From: a virus | Taxonomy: Duplodnaviria; Heunggongvirae; Uroviricota; Caudoviricetes | Length of the DNA: 25,804 bases | Virus record (IMG/VR): IMGVR_UViG_648276650_000007 | Coordinates: 1-25,804 of that record | Strand: one strand, 5' to 3' | Shown here: one piece after another, positions 917-20,722 of the stretch | Numbering within the stretch: the first letter of the stretch is position 1 | How the letters are laid out: each line of letters begins with the position of its first letter | The notes under the pieces: generated by a model | The model's input: only the letters and a program-made list of their open reading frames with translations | The model's database searches: none | What the model was told of the DNA's origin: nothing | Translations under genes and position numbers: made by a program

Positions 917-2445
917 TATGCAGCCCTCACAATATAATTAAAGGCAATGTTACGTGGGCGGTTCTCATTTGCGGTTGGGACAACGGCTGAAGCATTAAAA
1001 TTCGCATACAGGGAGCGTTGATACCCGGATGCTGATGCACCACTTAATGCGGGAGCTTTTGACTCCGAAGCCGAAAAGGCCCCTGACACGTATCCTAATA
1101 ACCCTTGTGAATCGCCAATTGAACTGTAGCCAACCACCCCGGTAATGTTTCGGATAGCATCTCCTTGTGCTGAAAGCAGAGTTCGCCCACTATCCACTCC
1201 CTTTCCACCATCCCAGCCACGAATAAACTCACCGCGTAAATCAGGCAATTTTAACGTCGGGTAAGCCTTTGCCAGATTAGGGTAATCTTCAGCAGAAAAA
1301 GCCGCACCGTTGCATTTCAGCCAGCCTGTTGGCGGTGTGGCTGAAGGCCATGGAACAGGCACACCAACAGGCAGCGCAGAGCCTTCCCCTAAACCAAGGT
1401 ATGCGAGAAGACTAGCAACATCCTTTCCACTCAAATGAGTCAGCGTATTGTCCAGCGGTTGTTTACCTGCCAGTGCATTAAGCATTGTCGTGGCAAAGTT
1501 CGGGTCATTCCCCAGCGCCGCCGCCAGTTCGTTCAGTGTATCCAGTGCCGCAGGTGCAGAACCCACCATTGCCGCAATCGCCGATTTCACAAATGCCGTG
1601 GTGGCAATCTGTGTATTGTTGACCGACTGTGCCGCAGTCGGTGCGGTTGGCGTTCCGGTGAGTGCCGGACTCGACAGCGGCGCTTTCAGTGCCAGCGCAT
1701 TGTTAATGGTGGTACTGAATTTCGGATCATTGTTAATGGCTACGGCTATTTCTTTCAGCGTGTCCAGCGTGGCTGGCGCATCATTAATAAGAGCCGTCAG
1801 TGCCGCCTGAACAAATGCGGTGGTCGCAACCTGCGTGGTGTTATTCCCCGTCGCTGGCGTTGGCGCTTTGGGTGTCCCGGTAAACGTAGGACTTTCTTTG
1901 GCTGCATACTGTGAATGCGGGTCCGGTGCGGCAAGATGTTTTGCCATCTGATCATCCGCGTACACCTTCAGCTCCAGTGCCTTGTCATCCACATACTTGC
2001 GGGTTGCCAGCACTACAGCAGGGTCGATTTTCAGGGTGATATTGTCCGTGCTGCTGGTAATCAGCACCATGCGCACGGTCTGGGTACGCCCGCTGCCTTC
2101 AGCCAGTTGCGGCTTATAGCTTTCCGGGCAGTTGCCCACGGCAATCAATGCCCCTGACTCATCAAACAGGCCCACTTCACGTATCCACCAACCGCCCTCG
2201 TTTTCAGGGATCACCTGTTCAGCAATAATCTGGCTGCTGTTCTGTGGGTCGATATAGAGCATATTCAGCGCAGCCCGACGTTTCTCATTTACCAGTGCAC
2301 TCTGCTTTGCGTCCGGCGTCGGCAATGTTCCGCCACCATCGCCCACCGCCATATGGGTAATTTTTAGCGGCACACCGAGCGCGGCGGCGCTGACAAGTTT
2401 CGCCGCGCCAATATCCGTCAGCAGGGTATAAAATTTTGTGCTCAT
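916..2445 (-). CDS. H: tail fibre protein (P2 H-like N-terminus, tail-collar-type C-terminal region)
   Basis: 509 aa. N-terminus MSTKFYTLLTDIGAAKL...MAVGDGGG resembles P2 gpH as I recall it. C-terminal part carries a tail-collar-like motif (PWPSATPPTGWLKCNGAAFSAEDYPNLAKAYP). Follows baseplate gene I with no gap. Confidence 0.9.
   Translation of the reverse strand: MSTKFYTLLTDIGAAKLVSAAALGVPLKITHMAVGDGGGTLPTPDAKQSALVNEKRRAALNMLYIDPQNSSQIIAEQVIPENEGGWWIREVGLFDESGALIAVGNCPESYKPQLAEGSGRTQTVRMVLITSSTDNITLKIDPAVVLATRKYVDDKALELKVYADDQMAKHLAAPDPHSQYAAKESPTFTGTPKAPTPATGNNTTQVATTAFVQAALTALINDAPATLDTLKEIAVAINNDPKFSTTINNALALKAPLSSPALTGTPTAPTAAQSVNNTQIATTAFVKSAIAAMVGSAPAALDTLNELAAALGNDPNFATTMLNALAGKQPLDNTLTHLSGKDVASLLAYLGLGEGSALPVGVPVPWPSATPPTGWLKCNGAAFSAEDYPNLAKAYPTLKLPDLRGEFIRGWDGGKGVDSGRTLLSAQGDAIRNITGVVGYSSIGDSQGLLGYVSGAFSASESKAPALSGASASGYQRSLYANFNASAVVPTANENRPRNIAFNYIVRAA
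1384..1409. other. candidate hix/gix-like DNA-invertase crossover site inside the tail-fibre gene
   Basis: Sequence TTCCCCTAAACCAAGGTATGCGAGAA matches the remembered gix/hix consensus (TTCCTGTAAACC-GA-GGTTTTGGATAA) at about 18 of 24 half-site positions, with the AACC-AA-GG core. It falls at H codons ~346-354 (LLAYLGLGE), at the junction of the P2-like and divergent parts of H. Confidence 0.4.
1456..1887 (-). repeat. internal tandem duplication (~70 codons x2) inside the tail-fibre gene
   Basis: Protein segments PTFTGTPKAPTPATGNNTTQVATTAFVQAALTALINDAPATLDTLKEIAVAINNDPKFSTTINNALALKAP and PALTGTPTAPTAAQSVNNTQIATTAFVKSAIAAMVGSAPAALDTLNELAAALGNDPNFATTMLNALAGKQP are clearly homologous. The antisense ORF 1448..1810 shows the same periodicity. 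Confidence 0.6.
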
Positions 2446-3047
2446 GGATTCACTCTCATTGTGTCAATAACATGGACCGCCCCGCCTTCATGCGCGGTGC
2501 CGCCAGAAATAATTGTTTCGTTGATATACGGATAGATCGTGATTTCTTCGCCAAGATAGCTGGCGGCTCCCACCCAATGCGGGCCGCTGGTCTGCAGATT
2601 GATGGACATGCCGATCATGTGGCGGCTACATGGTTTGGCATCGCTTATCAGTCGCTCAAGTTCCAGATAGGTATCTTCAGTGATGCCCTGGTCCTGCACG
2701 CCGATATCCAGGCGAAACGTGCCCGGAGCCTCTCCGGTTTGCCACCACTCAATAATGCGGATCAGGAATCCGAACGGTTCCACCACCCGCCGCACGGCAC
2801 TGGTGGTTCCTTTATGCTGATGAATATAAAAAGCATCCTTCACTACCTGGCGTTTGACGCTTTCTGTCCAGCCCTCGTCCCAGCGATCCACAGAGAACGC
2901 CCAGGCGAGATAAGGCAGGAAGCTGACCGGACAGGTAGCCGGATTCCACAAGTCACGCAGCGGCACCTGCAGATCAGAAATCCCGCTACAGGTTTGCGCC
3001 AGTCGGCGCTCCAGTGAAGTTGAACCCCGTGGCAGCAGACTATTCAT
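2442..3047 (-). CDS. I: baseplate assembly protein I
   Basis: 201 aa; LPYLAWAFSVDRWDEGW...VVEPFG resembles P2 gpI; synteny J-I-H. Confidence 0.85.
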   Translation of the reverse strand: MNSLLPRGSTSLERRLAQTCSGISDLQVPLRDLWNPATCPVSFLPYLAWAFSVDRWDEGWTESVKRQVVKDAFYIHQHKGTTSAVRRVVEPFGFLIRIIEWWQTGEAPGTFRLDIGVQDQGITEDTYLELERLISDAKPCSRHMIGMSINLQTSGPHWVGAASYLGEEITIYPYINETIISGGTAHEGGAVHVIDTMRVNP

Positions 3048-3948
3048 CCGTTCCTCCGTTGGTTACGCTCCACTGCGTACATGATGCCGCCTGTGTTTTG
3101 TTCAGGACCACATCCGCCAGAGGAGAAGCCAGCTCCACACGCTGCACACCCTCAACATGCAGGGCGGCAAAGATGGCGCTACGGCGAATATCCCGACCAA
3201 GACGCGTCTGACTGGCGATGTACTTCTGCAGGCTGGCTTTTGCCGCTGCCATTACCGGCTCTGCTTCCGGTCCCGGATAGAGAAAAATGGTGGCTTCCAC
3301 GCGATACGGGATGATTTCTGCGCTGCGAACCGTCAGACGGTCAGCCACCGGGCGGACGTTCTCACTGTTCAGAGCTTTTTCCACCACGTCCAGCAGGTCT
3401 TTTTCTGCAGTTCCATCGCCTTCGCGGCTAAGGACAGTCAGCACCACCTCTGCAGGTGCCGGGCTGGTTGCACTGGCATCCGCCACCCTACCGTCGGCGC
3501 TTCGGGCATGAAATTCATAAGCTGCAGTTGGCCCCGCAACAGAAAGCCCTTCAAAGGCTGCAGGCACACGCAGGCGTAACGCTTCATCGCTTTCCATCAC
3601 AGCTGCAACGGGCGGCACAGCATCATTATCAGCAGGCGTCACCGTCAGGCGTGTCACGTTGTAGTTGGCAGCGAGCTGGTCAAGATCGCCGCCCATCGCG
3701 TAAGCCACCATCACCGCCTGTGCGGCTTCGTTAATGCGCTGGCGCAGAAGCAACTCACGGTAAGCGTTCTCCTGCAACAATTTAGTGACGGGTTCAGATT
3801 CCAGTTCCAGCGTGCGGATCACGGCTTCCTGCTCATCTTTCGGATGAAGCGCCACAAATTCTGCCTTGCGTTCGGCAAGCAGCGTCTCAAAGTCCGGCAC
3901 ATCCACAATCTGCGGTGCAGGCAACTGCGAAAGGTCAATCATTGCCAT
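3040..3948 (-). CDS. J: baseplate protein J
   Basis: ORF 3040..3987. Start placed at Met14 (MAMIDLSQLPAPQIV), which aligns with the P2 gpJ N-terminus; ~302 aa. ...GRDIRRSAIFAALHVEGVQRVELASPLADVVL is P2 J-like. Confidence 0.85.
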   Translation of the reverse strand: MAMIDLSQLPAPQIVDVPDFETLLAERKAEFVALHPKDEQEAVIRTLELESEPVTKLLQENAYRELLLRQRINEAAQAVMVAYAMGGDLDQLAANYNVTRLTVTPADNDAVPPVAAVMESDEALRLRVPAAFEGLSVAGPTAAYEFHARSADGRVADASATSPAPAEVVLTVLSREGDGTAEKDLLDVVEKALNSENVRPVADRLTVRSAEIIPYRVEATIFLYPGPEAEPVMAAAKASLQKYIASQTRLGRDIRRSAIFAALHVEGVQRVELASPLADVVLNKTQAASCTQWSVTNGGTDE

Positions 3949-5384: not shown

Positions 5385-5829
5385 GTTTCACCGTCCACAT
5401 TTCTTCTGGTGCATCAGGTTCCGCTATAGCTTCAACGCTCGACACACTGCCGTCAGTGCTGACCAGCACACGTTCCGTCAGTTGCAGGTTCAGGCTGATA
5501 TCACAGACATCGTTGCGCAGAATATCCACCTCAAAGGTGAATAGCTTTTCCCGTAACGCCGGGTTATTGATGGCATCGGGCTGGTTATCCCTCAGCCACA
5601 GCAAAACCGGGGCCATCAGCAGATTCTGGTCGCCGCTGAAATCCTCAATCACCGCGTTCAGTGTGTAACGGTACTCCCACGACATGGAGCTGGCCCCCGT
5701 GGCAACCAGCGAACCGTTATCCACAAACAGATGCAGTTTGTCCGGGTTATTGCGGACATAAGGCACCGCTTTATTGAGGGCGTGGCGCAGGGATTGTGGT
5801 TTGTTCACTGTTTCGCTCCTGACACGCAA
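5377..5829 (-). CDS. R: tail completion protein R
   Basis: 150 aa; ...SLRHALNKAVPYVRNNPDKLHLFVDNGS...YRYTLNAVIEDFSGD resembles P2 gpR. Confidence 0.8.
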   Translation of the reverse strand: MRVRSETVNKPQSLRHALNKAVPYVRNNPDKLHLFVDNGSLVATGASSMSWEYRYTLNAVIEDFSGDQNLLMAPVLLWLRDNQPDAINNPALREKLFTFEVDILRNDVCDISLNLQLTERVLVSTDGSVSSVEAIAEPDAPEEMWTVKRG

Positions 5830-6061
5830 TAATCATGTCCACTTTGTCTGCACAGACCGCCCAGGCGGCCTCCGTTTCATCCAGCAACGCGTTCAGATCA
5901 CCGTTAGTGCGCGGCGTTGCCTGATCCAGCCGACACGGCGTCACTCGCGGACAACCACTGACGGTAAGCCATACCTCCGGTGAGTGCCGGACGTTTCCGC
6001 AGCCGGATAATGTCAGCAGGCAAAGGAGTATCAGCCCAGCGGCGTAAATCCTCGTTCTCAC
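5771..6061 (-). CDS. lysC: outer-membrane spanin lipoprotein (LysC / Rz1-like), embedded out of frame in lysB
   Basis: 96 aa; signal peptide with lipobox LTLSGC, Pro-rich C-terminus; starts inside the lysB reading frame and extends past it. Confidence 0.7.
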   Translation of the reverse strand: MRTRIYAAGLILLCLLTLSGCGNVRHSPEVWLTVSGCPRVTPCRLDQATPRTNGDLNALLDETEAAWAVCADKVDMIIACQERNSEQTTIPAPRPQ

Positions 6062-6332
6062 GTTTCAGTTCCTCGATCCGGTGTTGTCGTTGTCTCAGCA
6101 GCGTGCTGGTCTGTTCTGCTTCGGCATAGAGCCGCGCCTGCTCCCGGTTATTGGTTTCAGTCAGAATGGACAGGCTGATAAGCTGGCTATTGCTCTTTGC
6201 CAGTGCCTGGCTTTTGCTCTGCAGCTCGTCTGCCTGCGTGCTGATGGTCTGGCTGGCATCAGCCAGCCGCCACGTCTGCCAGCCCAGCGCCGCCAGTAAT
6301 AACGTCAGCACAACCAGCAGCAACCGGTTCAT
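5904..6332 (-). CDS. lysB: inner-membrane spanin (LysB / Rz-like)
   Basis: 142 aa; N-terminal TM (LLLVVLTLLLAALGW) then charged coiled-coil-like region; ATGA overlap with the lysA stop. Confidence 0.75.
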   Translation of the reverse strand: MNRLLLVVLTLLLAALGWQTWRLADASQTISTQADELQSKSQALAKSNSQLISLSILTETNNREQARLYAEAEQTSTLLRQRQHRIEELKRENEDLRRWADTPLPADIIRLRKRPALTGGMAYRQWLSASDAVSAGSGNAAH

Positions 6333-6706
6333 GCTGCTACCTGTTGCGCCATCTGATTACGGGTGATCCAGAAGGCAATAACGGTCAGTAGATAAAAGAC
6401 CAGGGTAATAGCCCACCCCGTCCAGGCGAGACTTACAACAATCAGCAATCGCATCACCCAACTGGTAAATACGTTTTCTTTTCGGGTAATTGTCTTCAGC
6501 AAAGATGCCCTTAACTCCTGCCAGAGCGGGCCATTCTTAATTAACGCAGCCAGTGCTACCGGAATTACCGCCCATGTCAGCAAACAGGCTACCCAAACGC
6601 CGGACGCTGCCAGTACCGGAAAAATCCTCTGCGGATACACCATTGCTGCGATTAACAGCGCCATCCATAACATCAGAAACAGTCCGCTGATTAATTTCTT
6701 TTTCAT
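6329..6706 (-). CDS. LysA-like lysis-associated membrane protein
   Basis: ORF 6329..6778. Start placed at Met25 (MKKKLISGLFLMLWMALLIAAMV) because it abuts the endolysin stop at 6708; several hydrophobic segments. Confidence 0.6.
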   Translation of the reverse strand: MKKKLISGLFLMLWMALLIAAMVYPQRIFPVLAASGVWVACLLTWAVIPVALAALIKNGPLWQELRASLLKTITRKENVFTSWVMRLLIVVSLAWTGWAITLVFYLLTVIAFWITRNQMAQQVAA

Positions 6707-6707
6707 T

Positions 6708-7220
6708 TCAGTTTGCTCCCTGTAAACACCAGGCCATCTCCCGCGCACGGCGGTTATCCAGCCCCTGATTAAAAACACCTTTCACATAAACCCAGCGCGG
6801 CAACTGTCGGCATGCATCCGCCCAGCGCCGCTGATTGAGCAATTTCACCAGCGTGGAACTACAGGCATTGCCCGTCCCCACGTTGAAGGCAAACGACACC
6901 GTAGCGTCATACACCTTCTGCGGCGGCTGTTGCTTCACACACCTTTCCAGCGCCCGCTCCACTCGTAGCACGTTGGAGATCAGCCCTTCAGCTGCCTGTC
7001 GTTCCGTAATAATTTTGCCGGGAATGACGCCCGACGTATTACCAATGCCGTCGGTCCAGACACCCGCGCTGCACTGATACGGCTGCAGACGACAGCCTTC
7101 ATAATCGGCGATCAGTTTCAGTCCCTCCTCGGAGGTGTGAAGCTGCTGAAACCCCGGCAGCGTGGCAGCAATAGCCAGCACGGCCCCGACAAGGCAGCGT
7201 TTAACGATTGATGGATTCAT
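6708..7220 (-). CDS. endolysin, T4-lysozyme-like (GH24), possibly signal-anchored
   Basis: 170 aa; E-x8-D-x-T-like catalytic region (SEEGLKLIADYEGCRLQPYQCSAGVWTDGIGNT); weakly hydrophobic Gly/Ala-rich N-terminus (RCLVGAVLAIAATLPGF); sits between holin and LysA. Confidence 0.85.
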   Translation of the reverse strand: MNPSIVKRCLVGAVLAIAATLPGFQQLHTSEEGLKLIADYEGCRLQPYQCSAGVWTDGIGNTSGVIPGKIITERQAAEGLISNVLRVERALERCVKQQPPQKVYDATVSFAFNVGTGNACSSTLVKLLNQRRWADACRQLPRWVYVKGVFNQGLDNRRAREMAWCLQGAN

Positions 7221-13757: not shown

Positions 13758-14423
13758 TTAAAGATCCGGATCTACAGGCTCATGATATAGATTTACAGGG
13801 TAATGAATAACTTCATAATTCAGTTGAGTAACTGTGTGAACATGCTGGCTATAAAAAACCAATGGATTTTTTTGACAAGGAGTAATCGTTATAGATTTAC
13901 AGGCATGAATTCTTGGTGCGAATTTATCTAAATGCGCCTTCCAGTTGCTCATCATTTCATTACATTTTCTATTACGAGTATAGATAATCAATCCACCACT
14001 TGCGCTGTCTACGGTCCCTGTACTATATCGTTCAGTGAGTTGAGCATACCCTTTAAATAAATAACTATATGAAGATGTATGTTTTTTGGCTTCGCCATGC
14101 CAAATATAATCCTTTAGTTTTATTGTAATATCACAATGTCCGCGCTGATTATTTTCATGAAATGCTTCAATGTCCATATCTTTATTTTTGATATTGGCCA
14201 ATAAAATTAAAGTAAGCTGATCTTCTGTTAAATCGAAGTTTAACTTATTTGAATTCTCTTCTATTTCCTTTACAGCAGAATCAAGTTCAATCCTGACAAA
14301 TTGTTTGAAATTATCGTACGATTGAAGTGCAAATCTAACACGAGTAATAGAAGCATTAATACGCTGAAGAAAAATATCATTATCAATATCAGCCAAACTC
14401 ATTGCTGCAGACATTTTTAACAT
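13758..14423 (-). CDS. hypothetical protein, cargo gene 3 of 3; possible PD-(D/E)xK-type nuclease
   Basis: 221 aa, AT-rich codon usage unlike the flanking phage genes. Start ATG overlaps the stop of gene 2 (TGATG). Contains EAFHE...GHCDITIKLKDYIWHGEAKK, compatible with an E...D...ExK nuclease core; this is inference from motif spacing only. Confidence 0.65.
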   Translation of the reverse strand: MLKMSAAMSLADIDNDIFLQRINASITRVRFALQSYDNFKQFVRIELDSAVKEIEENSNKLNFDLTEDQLTLILLANIKNKDMDIEAFHENNQRGHCDITIKLKDYIWHGEAKKHTSSYSYLFKGYAQLTERYSTGTVDSASGGLIIYTRNRKCNEMMSNWKAHLDKFAPRIHACKSITITPCQKNPLVFYSQHVHTVTQLNYEVIHYPVNLYHEPVDPDL

Positions 14424-14869
14424 CAGATAATATCCTTTGATTTAGATTCATCTAATGTAAAAAAAGGAAATACGAATGACTTATAGTCATACATAAGCTC
14501 CCCTGTAAATGGGTTTGCTAAAGATTGACTGATTTCCGCCTCAATAACTTCCTCTATTTCAAGTTCTACAGGGTCATGAAAATCATCAATGAACCAATAA
14601 TTGAGTTTTAAAAAATCAACCTTTGGGCTACAAAGAATTTGTATGGCCGGATAGATAACCTGCTCATACGTTTCTGGCTGTAAAACCTTATTATAACCAC
14701 CAGCTATATTAAATAAATCCTTATAACTTAAAGCTATATTTGATGATTTTTTAGCCCTTGCCTCGATTTCATCGTACAAATAGCAAGCTAACGCCCCAAT
14801 TTCAGGGCGTTCTGCACACATTTCTTTGATGATCTTGGGCATATCACCATCCTTCATTGCTGACTCCAA
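14423..14869 (-). CDS. hypothetical protein, cargo gene 2 of 3 (small acidic protein)
   Basis: 148 aa; start is directly adjacent to the gene 1 stop; acidic C-terminal half (DDFHDPVELEIEEVIEAEISQ); no motif I recognise. Confidence 0.6.
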   Translation of the reverse strand: MESAMKDGDMPKIIKEMCAERPEIGALACYLYDEIEARAKKSSNIALSYKDLFNIAGGYNKVLQPETYEQVIYPAIQILCSPKVDFLKLNYWFIDDFHDPVELEIEEVIEAEISQSLANPFTGELMYDYKSFVFPFFTLDESKSKDII

Positions 14870-15976
14870 TTATAATATCAGCTTTGTGAGGGTTTCGAAA
14901 TCATCTTTGGATATACATTTACTTAATATAGCATAGTTAACAGGAGAGCAACTACTCCCTCCTAGATGCCTGCGGAGTGTTCCCGGAATGATAAGCTCTA
15001 CGTTATCCGCTAATTGCAGTTTTGGATTATTTCTATCAACTCTAATTCCAATACGATACAAACCAATACTGCCTACTGCTTTGATGCCTTCCTTATTAAA
15101 CAAATCATCACGTAAGTCTTTAGTGGCCACATTTTTCTTTTCTTTATGCGTAGTCCCCTCATTCGTCAAAAATGACAAATCAAAGACTTTATAGCTTAAT
15201 TTTGAATAAGGCAATGAATTTTGTTTGAAAATTGGCTCAATTAACGGATAAAAATCTTTTTCCGATGATTTAAATTCATAACCGACATGATTATACAATT
15301 CACGAATAATGTTACTCTTTGCAAAAGTAACATTATCACCAATAATATTACCATTAGTATCTACCAAAACATGAATTTTATTAGTAACAGAGTCTAATAT
15401 ACAGACATCAAAACATTGTCGCTTTTCTTTTCGCTTTGCAATAATTTCATCAAACTGCTTGTATTGCGCAAGTGCTGACGGGGGAATTTTTTCTCTTACA
15501 ACTAATTCTCTGACAGATGAAAAAACAAGTATTGACTGGGTGTTTTGAATAGAATAATTAACAAGTTCAGGTTGATTTTTTACAGCATTTTGCAATTGGA
15601 CATCATCAAGGATCGAATCAACCAATAATGATGGTTGATTCATCAAATTCCATTGGAAACTAAATCTGTCATTTAGTGTTTTAATTACACTATTATCTAC
15701 AGTCAAACTAAATATTGCTTTTTCACCATAAACGACCTGACCCAAAATTAGGTCATTTACGTTTGCCATAATGCCATCAAACTTTTGCCTATCTTTACTT
15801 TTAAGATCAATGAGGCTTTCTAGTATTTTTTCGTTTGTTGCTTCACGCCCCCTACCTGTTGGCAGCCCTAAAGACGCAATAATTGGCCTTGCAACGTTCC
15901 ATGTGAAACGTTCAGTTAAGGTCAAGATCGACTTTAACTCAGACTCAGAAAGCACTACTGGGACACTACCTGTCAT
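14870..15976 (-). CDS. hypothetical protein, cargo gene 1 of 3
   Basis: ORF 14870..15985 begins with GTG; the in-frame ATG at 15976 (MTGSVPVV...) is preceded by an AGGTG Shine-Dalgarno-like sequence. ~368 aa; no Walker A or other motif recognised by eye. Confidence 0.65.
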   Translation of the reverse strand: MTGSVPVVLSESELKSILTLTERFTWNVARPIIASLGLPTGRGREATNEKILESLIDLKSKDRQKFDGIMANVNDLILGQVVYGEKAIFSLTVDNSVIKTLNDRFSFQWNLMNQPSLLVDSILDDVQLQNAVKNQPELVNYSIQNTQSILVFSSVRELVVREKIPPSALAQYKQFDEIIAKRKEKRQCFDVCILDSVTNKIHVLVDTNGNIIGDNVTFAKSNIIRELYNHVGYEFKSSEKDFYPLIEPIFKQNSLPYSKLSYKVFDLSFLTNEGTTHKEKKNVATKDLRDDLFNKEGIKAVGSIGLYRIGIRVDRNNPKLQLADNVELIIPGTLRRHLGGSSCSPVNYAILSKCISKDDFETLTKLIL

Positions 15977-16125
15977 AACTTGCACCTAGTCATCCAAAAA
16001 GCAATAAGAATTTGCTCTTGTCTTAATTTATCCTTCGATACCTAACAAATTACCTCAATGTTGAAAAAATTTGCAAGCCATTTGCTTCTAAAAAGCGACC
16101 TTACTCAGAGTGTTACAAAACTAAG

Positions 16126-16139
16126 CGAGCGCGCGCTCG
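16126..16139. repeat. perfect 14-bp GC-rich palindrome CGAGCGCGCGCTCG
   Basis: Read directly from the sequence; lies in the non-coding GC-rich island between the AT-rich cargo operon and the lipoprotein genes, abutting the cos-like motif. Confidence 0.85.
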
Positions 16140-16154
16140 TATCCCCGCCACGCC
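16136..16154 (-). other. candidate cos (cohesive end) site
   Basis: Minus strand reads GGCGTGGCGGGGATACGAG. The first 13 nt match the 19-nt cohesive end I recall for phage 186 (GGCGTGGCGGGGAAAGCAT) and 12 of 13 match P2 (GGCGAGGCGGGGAAAGCAC). Orientation is correct relative to Q (5' end of the motif points toward Q). Depends on my memory of the cos sequences. Confidence 0.3.
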
Positions 16155-16634
16155 TGCCCGCTTTATGTAGTAGTTTTCATGCACCTGCATGACATGAGCA
16201 AAAGCCCGCCAGTTCTGGCATGTCTTAGCCAAACCGATCCTCAAACGATCATGCGAACTCATGCAGCATAGACATGCATGACATGAAAATCGGTCAAACC
16301 TTGAAACCAGTCATAAATATGAGCCAGCTTAATACACACTAAATAGCTGCGTCTAATACTGCTACACCTGCCGTTTACTGACATGTGGCATGTCGCGTAA
16401 GGACAACATACTGTAGGCCAGATACAGCAGGATCAGGCGAAGAAAACGGCCCCACGCCTTACCCAGCAAGAGCCAAGGGCCAAGGGCTAACCGAAAGTGG
16501 AACATTATTCCGCGCAGTTATTTAGTGTCAGCTCTTTTGAGCTAAAATCAAGTTTCAACATGAGGGTCTGTGCAGGCTTTCTCATCCCGCTAATTTATAC
16601 AGCACACCTATATGGCTATGAGTTTGTCATGCCC

Positions 16635-16667
16635 GCTAATCCTGTTAGGATTAGCCTTGTTTTTTTA
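16635..16667 (+). terminator. intrinsic-terminator-like hairpin 17 nt upstream of the lipoprotein start
   Basis: 8-bp stem GCTAATCC / GGATTAGC, loop TGTTA, followed by CTTGTTTTTTT. Confidence 0.5.
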
Positions 16668-16683
16668 CGATTGGGATAGGGAT

Positions 16684-17490
16684 ATGAAGAAATTAACTGG
16701 CGTAATTGCTTTTGCTCTGCTGCTTACTGCTTGTGACAAACCGAAGATCGATGCATCAAGCGATCAGTCGATGAAAGAGTCCATTCAAAAAGTAAGAGAG
16801 TCCTTACCTGCAGATAAAAAAGCTCAGTTTGATGATGCAGTTAAAGTCGTTGCCTTTAGCCAAATCAACATGAGAGAGCTAATGCAGGCTGGAACGTCTT
16901 CTGGGGACGTCTACGAAACAAAAATTAAGTCAGCGTTGGAAGGTAAAACTGGTGATGAGGTTATAAATTACGCACAAACTATTCGCCTTGAGCGTGAGAA
17001 GAGAGAGAAAGAACAGGCTCTGCAAGAAATAAAAGAACTGGAAGCCAAACAAACCTCTGCAACACAGGCTGCGGAAAAAATGAAAGCCTTCAAGGTCGAA
17101 CGTTCCCGTTTTTATTTCCAGAAAGAGGATTACGGCAATGATCAGCCAATTCTGGATATTAGCGTTGAAAACGGAACAGACAAAGCGGTTGCCAGAGTAT
17201 TCTTCAAAGGAGTTATTGCCAGCCCAGGAAGAAGCGTCCCTTGGTTCTCTGACGTCTTCAACTATAAAATTTCTGGAGGTCTGGAACCAGGTGAGAAAGC
17301 CAACTGGAAATTAGCCCCTAATAGATACTCTGATTGGGGAAAACTTAAAGTTCCGGCTGATGCTATATTTACCGTCACAGTCATTGGCCTTGAAGACGCA
17401 GATGGGAAATCGATCTATGGTGACGCCGAGTTTTCAGAACGCGATGCTGACAGACTGAATCAACTTAGAGATAAGTACCTTTCTAAATAA
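16684..17490 (+). CDS. hypothetical lipoprotein
   Basis: ORF 16612..17490; start placed at Met25 (MKKLTGVIAFALLLTACDKPK) because of the signal peptide with lipobox LLTAC and the hairpin covering the upstream part; ~268 aa mature protein with a Lys/Glu-rich coiled-coil-like middle. Confidence 0.7.
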   Translation: MKKLTGVIAFALLLTACDKPKIDASSDQSMKESIQKVRESLPADKKAQFDDAVKVVAFSQINMRELMQAGTSSGDVYETKIKSALEGKTGDEVINYAQTIRLEREKREKEQALQEIKELEAKQTSATQAAEKMKAFKVERSRFYFQKEDYGNDQPILDISVENGTDKAVARVFFKGVIASPGRSVPWFSDVFNYKISGGLEPGEKANWKLAPNRYSDWGKLKVPADAIFTVTVIGLEDADGKSIYGDAEFSERDADRLNQLRDKYLSK

Positions 17491-17598
17491 TCAAAATTAA
17501 AGCTACTTCAGCATAGTCCCTGAGAATATATATCAGGGACTACCAAATCACGGCAGATACCCCTTAGTTAAATAATGCTAAACGCTTAGAAAGAGACC

Positions 17599-17898
17599 AT
17601 GAAACGTATAACTTTCTCCTTTACGTTAGTAGCAATCATCATAGCCTTAGCTGGATGTGCTTTGCCAGATAAAGACGGCGACTTCGGAGCTTATGTTCAT
17701 GCCTGTCAGCAATATGCATACGGAAAATCCTATGCCTTTGAGAATAGAGACTTCGCGTATAAGGTCTGTAAGGACGCGGCGAAACTGTGGAGTGACGAAG
17801 TTCCTGGCTATATCATCAGGCAAATTCAACTACATCCTGAAATACCCAGCGAAGAAATTAAATATGCAGCCATGGCCGGCTCTTTGGGGAACAACTAA
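17599..17898 (+). CDS. hypothetical small lipoprotein
   Basis: 99 aa; signal peptide with lipobox IALAGC; co-directional with the preceding lipoprotein gene. Confidence 0.6.
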   Translation: MKRITFSFTLVAIIIALAGCALPDKDGDFGAYVHACQQYAYGKSYAFENRDFAYKVCKDAAKLWSDEVPGYIIRQIQLHPEIPSEEIKYAAMAGSLGNN

Positions 17899-17965
17899 AT
17901 CAACTTATGAGAAAGGGGCTTAATGCCCCTTTTCGGTTCCCTTATCAAGTCCTAACGAAACAAGC

Positions 17966-18256
17966 TCAACTGATTACATCCATCGACCTACTGTATTCAT
18001 GGCTTCGAATTTTCGCCATCAACTCATCAGTCAATTCAGAAACCCACTGCAGAGCTAGCCCCTTCTCTTCATCACTACACTCACTAGCCGCTACAAGCTT
18101 AAGAAAAAAATCAATGCGCTGGAGCTTCAAAGACTCCAAAAAATAGTCCTGCATCTTTCCTCCTATAACACCATACGCAATACTGTACATATAACCACTG
18201 TTTATATTTACAGTATATAATAATCTTACTGATGTAAAACGTTTTTTTACGTTCAT
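17966..18256 (-). CDS. hypothetical protein downstream of replication gene A
   Basis: 96 aa AT-rich ORF; no recognisable motif; start uncertain. Confidence 0.3.
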   Translation of the reverse strand: MNVKKRFTSVRLLYTVNINSGYMYSIAYGVIGGKMQDYFLESLKLQRIDFFLKLVAASECSDEEKGLALQWVSELTDELMAKIRSHEYSRSMDVIS

Positions 18257-18307
18257 CAGCCTGATATGCCTGGTATTATTAAGAGCACGAATTGTTAACC
18301 CGCGTGA

Positions 18308-20722
18308 TTAATACATGTTCCGCCACTTATCATCTTCCTGCAAACGCTGGTTCCGATAGAAGATACGCAGGCCTGCTCCTGACGGAATACTGCCACCGCA
18401 AAGGAGCAAATCGACCTCTTTCTCGCTGCCATCAAATCCTCTGGACTTCAGTTCATAGACGAGCTGCTGACGCTGATACTCTGTAATTCGCTGTTTGTAG
18501 TCTTTACGCCGTTTCGGTTTAACCAGGCGCAATCTTGCTGCCAGTTCCCGGCGCTCTTTTTTGCTCATACTGTGCAGGTAATCGTGCAATTCCTTGTCAT
18601 CCATGCAGGTAATGTCCGTTCTGGTATCCCCATCTGCTGATTCATCTTTCTCATGTTGGTTCAAATTTTCAGCAAGGGGACAGTTATTGCCACGAGTCCA
18701 AGGGGCGCAAGCGCCCTGGTCGGCTGCCGCCTCCTGAACGTCAACGGCCTTACGAACCATTTTCCACTTCACTGCATGAGTGCAGATCTTGCCCTCTGCA
18801 ATGGGTGACCAGATGCCATAAATACGAATACCGTGATCGCCATAGGCGGTTGGCTCTTCGTTGATTTCATAAGCGGTTCTGATGAGGTGATATTTGCGGG
18901 GAACCAGTACGCCGCCCTGCTTCATGATGTAGGTGGCAAAACAACCAGCATCAGCAGCAGCCAGAATGGCATCAAGACGCGGGTTATCCAGTACCGGCGC
19001 ACCTGCTTTTTTGTCACCCTGTTGCCTTGCCGCCTGACCAGCCAGCAAGCGAAGTTCACGGTAAGCCTGACGTCCCGGAATACCAAAGAAGCGGAATTGC
19101 TGAACACGATGCAGAGACGCCCAGGCATTAACGTATTCAGCGTTATCACGCAGGGATTTACCCGTTTCCTTGCTGATCTCGCCAGCCAGACCACGCCCGT
19201 CAATGTTCTTACTGATGTATTTCGCGATGTAGCTTGTCGGCGTTCCTTTGCGCGGGTTTATCAGCTCAGATTTAAAGCGTGGACCAGTGTTATTACCCAG
19301 TTCCTCGCGGTCTTCACGGATGGCAAACTTACGCAACAATGCAGTAATGGCGCGGCGGTCTTTTTTGCGCATGAAACACAACAGGTGCCAGTGAACTGTA
19401 CCGTCATGATGCGGCTCAGCCACCCGCACGCCATACCAGCGCAACCCGGCTTTGTGTATCGCCTTACGAAATGCAGCAAACATGCCGACCAGATAATCGC
19501 TGCTTTGTCTTACCGTCGCATTTGTCCAGGTTGGGTTTGGTCTGCCGTTATTGAGCGTGGAATGGAAACGTGACGGACAGGTAATGGTGTAGAAAACGGC
19601 GCAGTCACCGCGCATTTCCGCGATAAGCTCCAGACCTTTAACACAGGCCATCATCTCATTGCGGCGGTGCGCCGGGTTGCTGCTGCTGGCGTTTACCACG
19701 TCTTCCATATCCAGCGTGTCGCCCTCTTCGTTCACCAGTTCATGAGAACGGAAAAACTCCAGTGACTTGCGGCGCTGCTCACGTTTATGCATCACGGCTT
19801 CATAGCTGACATAGGGAGATGCTTTTTTGCTGACCAGGCAGACAGCACGCAACTGCTCTTCCCGCCATTCGCAACGCATTTTCCATAATTTCCGGTACCA
19901 CCAGTCGGCGCACAACATACGCGCCAGCGAACCCGGAATGAGTTCATAGGGCACGGGTTTACGGCGGTTTCTTTTCCGACGGAGTTGCTCAAACGCAGGC
20001 GGGATGACATCCAGACGCAGGGTTTCCGCTGCCACCTTTTCCCATGTCTTGCGGATTTCTTCTGGCTTAACGTCATCGGTGGCATACAAATCACCACAAG
20101 CTGCATCAAGGCACATGCTCATATGCGCAGCGACAAGGGTAGACAGGCGTTTCACCTGATCCTGACTCATTTCAGGCAGAATCAGCAGGCCGTCCAGCCC
20201 TACATGGCTTGCCATAAAACGAAAAGATGCAGATAGCTGGCTGTCGCGTACATGCTCCAGTCGTTCCAGACATGGCTTAATCGTCTCACGTAAATAGCGG
20301 GAATAAGCCTTTGGCCTGCCCAAGCTGCTGAAGTATTCAATACGTTGCATCAGCGGCTTGCTGATATGGGAGGGCTGGGCGCTGACGTCTGCCAGAATGA
20401 CCATGTCCGGGTTAAAACGCTGCTGCTCATGCGCCAACTTTGCCCGGCTAATGAGCTTATCCTGCTCTATTTCGCGTTGGACAGGATCACGGGATTCATT
20501 AAAGAAATAACGCTCCCAGACCTGATCACTCAGTGCCTCGCGGCGCAGTTGTTCCTGCTCGTTATCGGCAGCGTACAGAGTGATCAGGTTTGAAAGCGCA
20601 GAAACCGGCGCAACTTCCGCCGGGTCCAGATAAGGGTTAATGGCCTTTTTCGGGCTGTTCCATGAGAACGATGCGGCAGCCTCGTTAAAGCCGCAGCAGT
20701 TGCTCATATCGGCATGGCTCAT
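18308..20722 (-). CDS. A: replication initiation endonuclease (P2 A / rolling-circle HUH family)
   Basis: 804 aa; HUH-like motif TVHWHLLCF and two-tyrosine motif [11 protein letters not shown]; size and position match P2 gene A; ATGA overlap with the upstream methylase stop. Confidence 0.9.

Follow-up and report, generated by a model that had tools for sequence, protein, structure and literature searches.

The window analyzed here is a 25,804-nucleotide (nt) stretch of viral DNA, positions 1 to 25,804 of the IMG/VR virus record IMGVR_UViG_648276650_000007. It is a prophage of the P2 family that, in the part compared, is 100% identical to a prophage of E. coli C 236-04A. The genes for regulation and replication (integrase, CI, CII, Fil, Dam, and the replication endonuclease A) are of the 186/Fels-2 type. 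The subject of this report is a pair of lipoprotein genes, designated LP1 and LP2, which are located between the cohesive end site cos and replication gene A; the gene order is Q - cassette - cos - LP1 - LP2 - orf62 - A. The lipoprotein locus contains the following features, with protein lengths in amino acids (aa).

16684..17490, + strand: LP1, a DUF6694-family lipoprotein of 268 aa (open reading frame, Pfam, and PHROG)
17599..17898, + strand: LP2, a small lipoprotein of 99 aa (open reading frame; phrog_7666 over its full length)
16624..16651, + strand: putative sigma-70 promoter, with -35 TTGTCA, a 16-nt spacer, and an extended -10 TGTTAGGAT (consensus scan)
17514..17542, + strand: inter-gene stem-loop, with a 10-bp stem, a 9-nt loop, and no T-run (RNA fold)
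17911..17933, both strands: bidirectional intrinsic terminator, GAAAGGGGC-UUAAU-GCCCCUUUU (RNA fold; -15.1 kcal/mol, z -2.3)

The initial annotation, made from the letters of the window, had reported two open reading frames with lipoprotein signals at these positions of the + strand, and the lipoboxes, the invariant lipid cysteines, and the low ratios of nonsynonymous to synonymous substitutions (dN/dS) bear this out. It had treated LP1 and LP2 as two separate genes. Instead, the conserved pair, spacer, and signals make them one mobile operon of about 1.3 kb, consisting of promoter, LP1, stem-loop, LP2, and terminator. By itself the consensus scan for promoters is weak (2 sites were found versus 4.3 expected). 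The block TTGTC[AC]-16 nt-TGTTAGGATTA is retained in five of six diverged copies, including those of SSU5-like phage-plasmids (74% nt identity), and its -10 block is identical in all six; we regard 16624..16651 as a putative promoter. The stem-loop between the genes folds with -16.1 kcal/mol (z -4.2), and none of 200 shuffled sequences folded equally well. Its phage-plasmid copy has an 11-bp stem with G-U wobbles and the same -16.1 kcal/mol. A partial terminator or an mRNA stabilizer are possible roles for this structure. The terminator is common to the LP operon (+ strand) and to a converging stub of an SOS operon (- strand), and it lies within the block that is conserved with the phage-plasmid copy (16643-17933). 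A terminator-like hairpin at 16635-16655 was considered as an attenuator and rejected; its conservation does not extend to the phage-plasmid copies, and the hairpin overlaps the -10 element. The Rfam scan of 15900-18400 gave no match. These signals support the reading that the lipoprotein genes have their own promoter and would be transcribed independently of the phage operons, and we infer expression in the lysogen.

LP1 begins with a signal peptide (residues 1-16, MKKLTGVIAFALLLTA, followed by C17-DKP) that starts with MKK and has a basic n-region, a hydrophobic core, and the lipobox L-T-A-C17, which is of the form [LVI][ASTVI][GAS]C. The lipid cysteine is invariant in 94 of 94 aligned homologs, six of which also match Pfam LPAM_1. 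The RefSeq name of the protein is 'DUF6694 family lipoprotein'; Pfam DUF6694 (PF20404) matches residues 7-101 with 79.2 bits against a gathering cut-off of 24.3 bits (E = 3.5e-22), and all 94 aligned homologs match this family. PHROG 7468, whose function is unassigned, is matched over the full length. The RefSeq record WP_001251691 calls a 292-aa LP1 that starts at 16612 and thus has an N-terminal extension of 24 residues. This start was rejected: the homologs are 268-271 aa long, and indels of 1-2 nt in a T-run break the longer frame in other copies. The extension (16612-16683) also overlaps the conserved promoter block. Judged by these comparisons, 16684 is the correct LP1 start and 16612 is a start-codon mis-annotation.

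The alignment-based AlphaFold model of LP1 is confident, with a predicted local distance difference test score (pLDDT) of 85.8. It contains a helical domain at about residues 27-85 (the Pfam DUF6694 part), a charged helix of 44 residues (90-133), an immunoglobulin-like (Ig-like) beta-sandwich (136-245), and a C-terminal helix (252-265). Pfam DUF6694 covers only the N-terminal 100 residues; the C-terminal Ig-like domain is absent from Pfam and has weak DUF5067 matches in 3 of the 94 members. Most of the invariant residues are located in this C-terminal domain (R142, F143, N163, R183, P186, W187, G198, G199, E201, E204, and others). A Foldseek search of the PDB with the LP1 model returned nothing at E 1e-3 or better, and the search of BFVD matched uncharacterized proteins only. 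The weak fold matches were to SadB and to accessory beta-sandwich domains of glycosidases, and the LP1 profile had no sequence match among PDB chains. SadB (PDB 4c47, deposited as a trimeric inner-membrane lipoprotein) and an exported protein of C. difficile (PDB 5tta) have weak fold scores and identities to LP1 of at most 15%. SadB assists an autotransporter, whereas there is no autotransporter near LP1.

LP2 has a signal peptide of 19 residues (MKRITFSFTLVAIIIALAG, followed by C20-ALP) that starts with MKR, with a basic n-region, a hydrophobic core, and the canonical lipobox IA-L-A-G-C20. Its lipid cysteine is invariant in 15 of 15 homologs. The mature protein has 80 aa and an isoelectric point of 5.2 and is predicted to be helical. 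Cys36 and Cys57 of the mature part are also invariant in the alignment of the 15 homologs and likely form a disulfide. The AlphaFold2 model of LP2 is all-helical and poor (pLDDT 57), and it was excluded from the fold search. A Pfam scan at E 0.1 or better gave nothing for LP2, and phrog_7666 is a PHROG with function unassigned. The homologs form 14 clusters at 90% identity, all from Enterobacteriaceae, and all LP2 contexts are phage or phage-plasmid. An exhaustive HMMER profile search of 1.84 billion representatives found three genuine LP2 clusters; two further profile matches were repetitive eukaryotic mistranslations and were discarded as spurious.

The dN/dS is 0.09 for both LP1 and LP2 when compared with the Citrobacter copies. 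In the comparison of LP2 with Salmonella, the value is 0.04 for the mature part and 0.54 for the signal peptide; across homologs, the mature 80 residues are 73-97% conserved, and the signal peptide varies freely. By these substitution patterns, both genes are under purifying selection.

The residue that follows the lipid cysteine of LP1 is Asp throughout the enterobacterial branch (as Asp-Lys or Asp-Gln) and Ser elsewhere. The Lol-avoidance signal of E. coli is Asp at +2 with certain residues at +3 (PMC9595528). The conserved Asp at +2 makes retention of enterobacterial LP1 in the inner membrane likely, though not certain. LP2 has Ala at +2 and Leu or Phe at +3 across homologs. Ala at +2 predicts an outer-membrane destination by the E. 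coli +2 rule, so that LP2 is probably sorted to the inner face of the outer membrane. Superficially, the predicted topology (an inner-membrane-tethered protein with a long helix, together with a small outer-membrane lipoprotein) resembles that of Rz/Rz1, and we considered whether LP1 and LP2 have a lysis or virion function, such as that of a spanin-like pair of inner- and outer-membrane lipoproteins. We rejected this explanation as very improbable. The prophage already has LysB/LysC spanins, a holin, and a lysozyme in its lysis cassette; LP1 is a lipoprotein with a lipobox, not a type II or transmembrane-anchored protein, and it is common outside phages; and the lipoprotein genes belong to no late operon and are encoded on the other strand.

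The operon is found in elements of different types. The Citrobacter SSU5-like phage-plasmid pRHB20-C16_2 (106 kb) contains a 76%-identical LP1, a spacer with the same length as in the window (108 nt), and an LP2 homolog, and its homology with the window is unbroken from 16643 to 17933 (74% nt identity over 1,300 bp). The same LP1-LP2 arrangement is present in Enterobacter-type phage-plasmids of about 110 kb, and a Citrobacter P2-like prophage contains the pair with 95% and 92% aa identity. The full lipoprotein region was found in 19 of 5,426 complete E. coli genomes. The LP operon moves horizontally between unrelated temperate element types. Separate acquisition of LP1 and LP2 was considered and dropped because the identical pairing is present in SSU5-like phage-plasmids.

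Each of the two genes also occurs without the other, and LP1 is alone in most species. LP1 with its promoter, at 99% nt identity, is present alone on three small E. coli plasmids. The small-plasmid copies (plasmids of 12.6-29 kb; positions 6001-6959 in locus L002 and 5998-6903 in locus L003 of our survey) are beside remnants of IS1 or of a DDE transposase. Two E. coli chromosomes (ECONIH4 and CAVP776) contain an LP1 interrupted by IS1. The plasmid copies and the IS1-broken copies indicate recent movement mediated by insertion sequences, and they indicate dispensability.

LP2, for its part, is found in most SSU5-like plasmids behind an unrelated lipoprotein of 139-144 aa with several cysteines (phrog_4748), from which it is separated by a gap of 10 nt; these loci are L014-L017, L021, and L107 (at about 5560-6300). 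PLSDB contains 215 plasmid records with LP2 in the phrog_4748-type arrangement, 200 of them from Klebsiella and 211 non-mobilizable, and mostly of about 110 kb. In these plasmids, the sequence is homologous to the window from 17647-17653 onward, which is where mature LP2 starts; this joint suggests that the LP2 signal peptide belongs to the exchangeable upstream segment. When LP1, LP2, and the 139-aa partner were compared with one another, homology was restricted to the signal peptides. In Salmonella (L018, 5465-6679), LP2 occupies the end of a lambdoid prophage that adjoins dsbB, and the order is a 168-aa SWIM-zinc-finger-like protein, LP2, and then a hok/gef toxin gene.

These arrangements bear on a rival explanation, namely that LP1 and LP2 are functionally unrelated and merely travel together, one as a generic envelope lipoprotein and the other as a phage-specific factor. 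Among 80 GTDB loci, LP2 adjoins LP1 only in the Citrobacter P2-like prophage (L024). LP1 is alone not only on the small E. coli plasmids but also as a 77% homolog; LP2 follows phrog_4748 in most SSU5-like plasmids and the SWIM-like protein in Salmonella; and the recombination joint falls at the start of mature LP2. On the other side, the pair moved as a unit between unrelated element types, and the spacer length, the hairpin, and the terminator were kept over 26% nucleotide divergence. The gene ahead of LP2 in the phage-plasmids is always another lipoprotein, which suggests selection for a two-lipoprotein arrangement. We consider mere co-travel somewhat unlikely.

The slot that the operon occupies in the prophage is delimited by the following features, to which the neighboring cassette is added.

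18308-20722, - strand: gene A (replication), on the strand opposite to LP1 and LP2
17966-18213, - strand: p95-like SOS promoter region, the right boundary of the slot (LexA-box pattern and tblastn)
18154..17966, - strand: conserved 62-aa orf (phrog_698; 95% identical to Fels-2 STM2728)
16136-16154, - strand: cos cohesive end, 19 nt, GGCGTGGCGGGGATACGAG, a unique match and the left boundary of the LP-operon slot
13758-15985, - strand: three-gene cassette (371, 148, and 221 aa; PHROGs 12777, 11490, and 9664) in the cos-to-Q slot

The first 13 nt of the cos in the window are the annotated cos of phage 186. The CATGC-rich segment of about 120 bp that follows (16155-16278) can be aligned to the right chromosome end of 186 and is kept in 186, Fels-2, and 813R9. 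Around the slot, backbone homology to these three phages is limited to 16129-16278 and to 17965 onward. On the right side, a perfect LexA box (CTGTTTATATTTACAG, 18198-18213) is located upstream of the 62-aa orf. According to the annotation of the 186 record, the p95 SOS operon of that phage continues into tum (DinI-like) and then orf97, of which the record states that its expression from a plasmid 'blocks 186 infection'; the Orf97 sequence begins with hydrophobic membrane helices. Fels-2, 813R9, and 186 hold dinI/tum with or without orf97 at this place. The window contains no homolog of DinI/tum or of orf97, though these follow the orf in related phages, and the 62-aa protein has no similarity to 186 Tum. 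The 1.7 kb from the 62-aa orf to cos are occupied by both lipoprotein genes on the opposite strand. From this alignment, the LP operon is a replacement of the dinI/tum-orf97 segment, between cos and what looks like the stub of a 186-type p95 SOS operon. Since the dinI-like tum and orf97 are absent, the SOS inducibility of the prophage may be altered. SOS-induced transcription from the stub would converge on LP2.

The segment that separates cos from the LP promoter (16279-16600, about 320 bp) is without a convincing open reading frame. It accompanies the operon in 19 of 19 E. coli prophage copies (96-100% identity), is not present in the plasmid or phage-plasmid copies, and may be an extended cos or terminase-binding region.

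The claim of the initial annotation that the lipoprotein genes are transcribed opposite to their neighbors stands: gene A, the small orf (17966-18154), and the cassette (13758-15985) are all on the - strand. It had also placed both genes in a 'cargo interval' beside gene A. The accessory location was recognized correctly; the interval really consists of two slots, with cos between the lipoprotein genes and the cassette. The gpA-gpQ 'hotspot' of P2 is a pair of slots that flank cos and exchange their cargo independently, one from cos to Q (the three-gene cassette) and one from A to cos (the lipoproteins). The lipoprotein genes are located between gpA and gpQ and vary among related prophages, as hotspot cargo does. 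GC content is 0.42-0.44 in the LP slot, 0.30-0.38 in the cassette slot, and 0.52-0.55 in the backbone; the foreign composition agrees with the earlier description of LP1 and LP2 as accessory genes of the moron type. Like the old and tin cargo of the P2 hotspot, the LP operon is of foreign composition, variable, and next to cos; unlike cargo of that type, it is not cytoplasmic and nucleic-acid-targeting, and it matches no defense model.

The cassette is present in 20 of the 5,426 E. coli genomes, as two alleles that are about 85% identical. Its proteins had no PADLOC match and no convincing Pfam match, and we regard it as a candidate defense system. One could suppose that LP1, LP2, and the three cassette genes form a single five-gene defense system. 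They are adjacent in the window and in several E. coli genomes, and the published table of P2 hotspots enters them as one locus (PMC9122126). This supposition is effectively refuted. The site cos separates the two groups of genes, which are on opposite strands and differ in GC content (0.30-0.38 versus 0.42-0.44). The cassette and the LP operon also assort independently: only about five genomes are on both the list of 19 LP-positive and the list of 20 cassette-positive E. coli genomes, and 15 cassette-positive genomes are without the LP operon. The published table pairs the LP accessions with three hypotheticals or with a DUF262 protein in place of the cassette (PMC9122126 supplement), and the phage-plasmid copies of the LP genes are without the cassette.

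We surveyed the LP1 family through a pattern scan of 185,579 species genomes, in which 120 loci were confirmed. These loci (38-69% identity) are from Gamma- and Betaproteobacteria, Desulfobacterota, Acidobacteriota, Bacteroidota, Planctomycetota, and others; the spread is sporadic yet very wide. Phages are one of the settings. In eight species of the Pseudomonas group (L050, L054, L056, L068, L072, L075, L076, and L094), a lambda-like prophage carries the LP1 homolog immediately ahead of its tape-measure gene, and one sequenced Pseudomonas phage has this arrangement too; the loci of the three sequenced siphophages with an LP1 homolog in the tail gene cluster are L022, L113, and L114. The tape-measure gene of E. 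coli phage PHB10 is directly followed by an LP1 homolog, PseuP_222 has one between the tail-tip genes K and I, and in Marinobacter phage AS1 the homolog adjoins the integrase. At least five other phage lineages carry members of the family in moron slots among their tail genes.

Defense islands are a second setting. In seven species of Alcanivoracaceae, the LP1 homolog is flanked by a divergent WYL (BrxR-like) regulator, a type of regulator recognized as a marker of defense islands (PMC9122601). The genes on the other flank were identified in six of the seven loci, all but L040. They are BrxA-BrxB-BrxC in L033, L034, L042, and L079 (LP1 at about 8000; in L034 at 2272-3102); in L041 an HsdR-like protein is followed by two more genes, and L043 has a superfamily 2 (SF2) helicase of 1,093 aa. 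A widespread marine homolog is found among genes for a SymE toxin, an antitoxin, ThsB-TIR, and SocA_Panacea; another adjoins a large serine recombinase and a tyrosine integrase; and a Desulfobacula copy has as its neighbors a T5orf172/SNIPE protein and an island with a P4-like primase and AlpA. When PADLOC was run on the pooled neighbors of 20 diverse LP1 loci, with no control set, it reported proteins of Cas, DRT, Mza, BREX, and candidate systems. The annotatable contexts of the LP1 family are mostly mobile or conflict-related. In Methylophaga the homolog is located in an ordinary-looking site, within a cluster of small unknown genes.

LP1 and LP2 were also compared with known systems. PADLOC-DB 2.0 (5,027 models, E 0.1) gave no match for LP1, LP2, orf96, or the three cassette proteins, and the PADLOC, Pfam, NCBIfam, and PHROG scans returned only DUF6694 and PHROGs of unknown function. 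Neither protein had a Pfam match to Bor/Iss or TraT (E 0.1; LP1 matched DUF6694 only). Cor (phrog_1119) matched residues 1-20 of LP1, which are the signal peptide, with E 0.054, and it did not match LP2. A profile of the 15 LP2 homologs, run against all PDB chains including Llp and Rtp45, had one spurious match (E 1.5). The fold comparison did not find the repeat-domain fold of Ltp in LP1, and BLASTP of LP1 and LP2 against 186 Orf97 aligned at best 10 residues (E 2, not significant). Our literature search found no paper on DUF6694, the WP accessions of the lipoproteins, or the PHROG identifiers. The published P2 hotspot table (PMC9122126) already contains the exact LP1 and LP2 proteins under the label 'hypothetical', and they are not mentioned among the systems that this study reports cloning. 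LP1 and LP2 belong to named, uncharacterized families and are at best new exclusion or moron lipoproteins of prophages.

The data support the view that the LP genes are a lysogenic-conversion (moron-type) operon of a P2-family prophage. As to what the operon does, we tentatively favor, at a little less than an even chance and by analogy with known systems, superinfection exclusion at the level of the envelope. The initial annotation had named the two lipoproteins as candidates for such a role; the genomic context does lean toward an anti-phage role in the envelope, whereas no similarity to known exclusion lipoproteins was found. We favor exclusion because 186 encodes an infection-blocking membrane protein in this slot, because LP1 homologs recur in tail-cluster moron sites of at least five other phage lineages, because they edge BREX, type I restriction-modification (R-M), and toxin-antitoxin (TA) or TIR islands, and because LP2 was not found outside phages and phage-plasmids. 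The genes of known exclusion lipoproteins, too, are often located at such sites.

Both lipoproteins are predicted to be exported and lipidated. LP1, held in the inner membrane, would extend its Ig-like binding domain on the helical stalk into the periplasm, and the small LP2 in the outer membrane would face it across the periplasm. LP1 would block genome entry after adsorption in the manner of Ltp, SieA, or HK97 gp15; LP2 would act from within the periplasm, where it would lock a receptor of the outer membrane or mask it, in the manner of Llp, Cor, or Rtp45.

Llp and Rtp45 block their outer-membrane receptors from the periplasmic side (PMC12685063). Together with Cor, these proteins (from phages T5, Rtp, and phi80/N15/HK022; receptors FhuA and LptDE) are small phage lipoproteins, as is LP2. 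LP2 shares with them a canonical lipobox, a residue other than Asp at +2, conserved cysteines, and occurrence in phages or phage-plasmids only; judged by its signal peptide, it is a small phage lipoprotein without a Lol-avoidance signal, as expected of the Llp/Rtp45 type. Unlike them, mature LP2 is larger (80 aa versus about 6 kDa) and predicted to be helical, its gene in the P2-like prophage is not beside a receptor-binding-protein gene, and there is no sequence relationship.

Ltp of the Streptococcus phage TP-J34 is a superinfection-exclusion lipoprotein (PMC3952083). With P22 SieA and HK97 gp15, it belongs to the DNA-entry blockers that are anchored in the cytoplasmic membrane. LP1 resembles Ltp as a prophage-borne lipoprotein that, with Asp at +2, is predicted to be on the outer face of the cytoplasmic membrane. 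The target of Ltp is the tape-measure protein, and the position of LP1-family genes beside the tape-measure gene of siphophages is a parallel to it. Unlike Ltp, SieA, and gp15, LP1 combines the DUF6694 helical domain with an Ig-like sandwich, has no homology or fold match to them, and belongs to a family that is also chromosomal in many phyla. Orf97 of 186 shares with the LP operon the slot (from gene A/p95 to cos) and the envelope location. Orf97 has transmembrane helices and no lipobox, unlike LP1 and LP2, and there is no sequence similarity; it shares a LexA-controlled promoter and transcript with tum, whereas the LP operon has a promoter of its own and is encoded on the other strand.

The main rival is a host-fitness or virulence moron, in which the operon would change an envelope property that aids the lysogen regardless of phages; examples are serum or complement resistance (lambda Bor, TraT), envelope-stress tolerance, and adhesion or colonization. 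LP1 would fit such a role as a widespread bacterial periplasmic lipoprotein that is often chromosomal, non-phage, and next to housekeeping genes. Its Ig-like domain contains many invariant Trp, Arg, and Glu residues, and the weak resemblance to glycosidase sandwich domains and SadB fits a generic binder of envelope ligands. The presence of the same operon in two phage types of differing biology argues against specificity for self-exclusion. We nevertheless regard this rival as unlikely: there is no Pfam match to Bor/Iss, TraT, or a virulence family; LP2 was never seen outside phages or phage-plasmids; LP1 recurs next to genes for the tape measure and the tail tip, and also next to BREX, R-M, and TA islands; and 186 keeps an infection-blocking gene in the same slot.

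Several observations weigh against exclusion by the LP operon. Phages of the P2/186 type adsorb to lipopolysaccharide, which is not obviously maskable by a periplasmic lipoprotein, and Lys at +3 might weaken the inner-membrane retention of LP1. LP1 and LP2 have no sequence or fold similarity to a characterized exclusion protein or defense model. The two genes do not depend on one another for their occurrence, as is evident from the solitary LP1 on small plasmids, the IS1-interrupted chromosomal copies, and the LP2 genes that follow the 139-aa lipoprotein or the SWIM-like protein instead of LP1; across 80 species, no conserved partner gene of LP1 was found beyond within-family synteny. The association of the LP1 family with defense islands was seen without comparison to a control set. 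Some LP1 sites look ordinary, such as the one after rplS in Pectobacterium, and many neighbors in the 20 diverse LP1 loci are housekeeping genes.

A broader version of the exclusion reading is that DUF6694 lipoproteins are a cross-phylum, single-gene family of envelope anti-phage proteins that would block genome entry in diderms, with LP1, in the temperate elements of enterobacteria, coupled to the phage-only LP2 as a two-membrane barrier. We consider it doubtful. It would explain why the family, though sporadic, keeps an identity of 40-55% from phylum to phylum, and why phages, phage-plasmids, and BrxR-anchored islands have repeatedly captured it.

Three results are new. The operon is common to P2-like prophages and SSU5-like phage-plasmids; the P2 hotspot is split by cos into two slots that exchange independently, a result that does not depend on the function of the cargo; and members of the DUF6694 family are, across phyla, associated unusually strongly with phages and defense islands, as seen with no control set. 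If the operon does not exclude phages, it is an ordinary uncharacterized moron. If it does, LP1 and LP2 would add two new protein families to the few envelope exclusion factors of Gram-negative bacteria, with LP1 of note for its spread over many phyla and its embedding in defense islands. DUF6694 would then have a function, as would a gene in more than 200 Klebsiella phage-plasmids, and the logic of the 'defense island' would extend from cytoplasmic nucleic-acid sensors to periplasmic lipoproteins. A barrier formed by LP1 and LP2 across two membranes would be a new architecture of superinfection exclusion.

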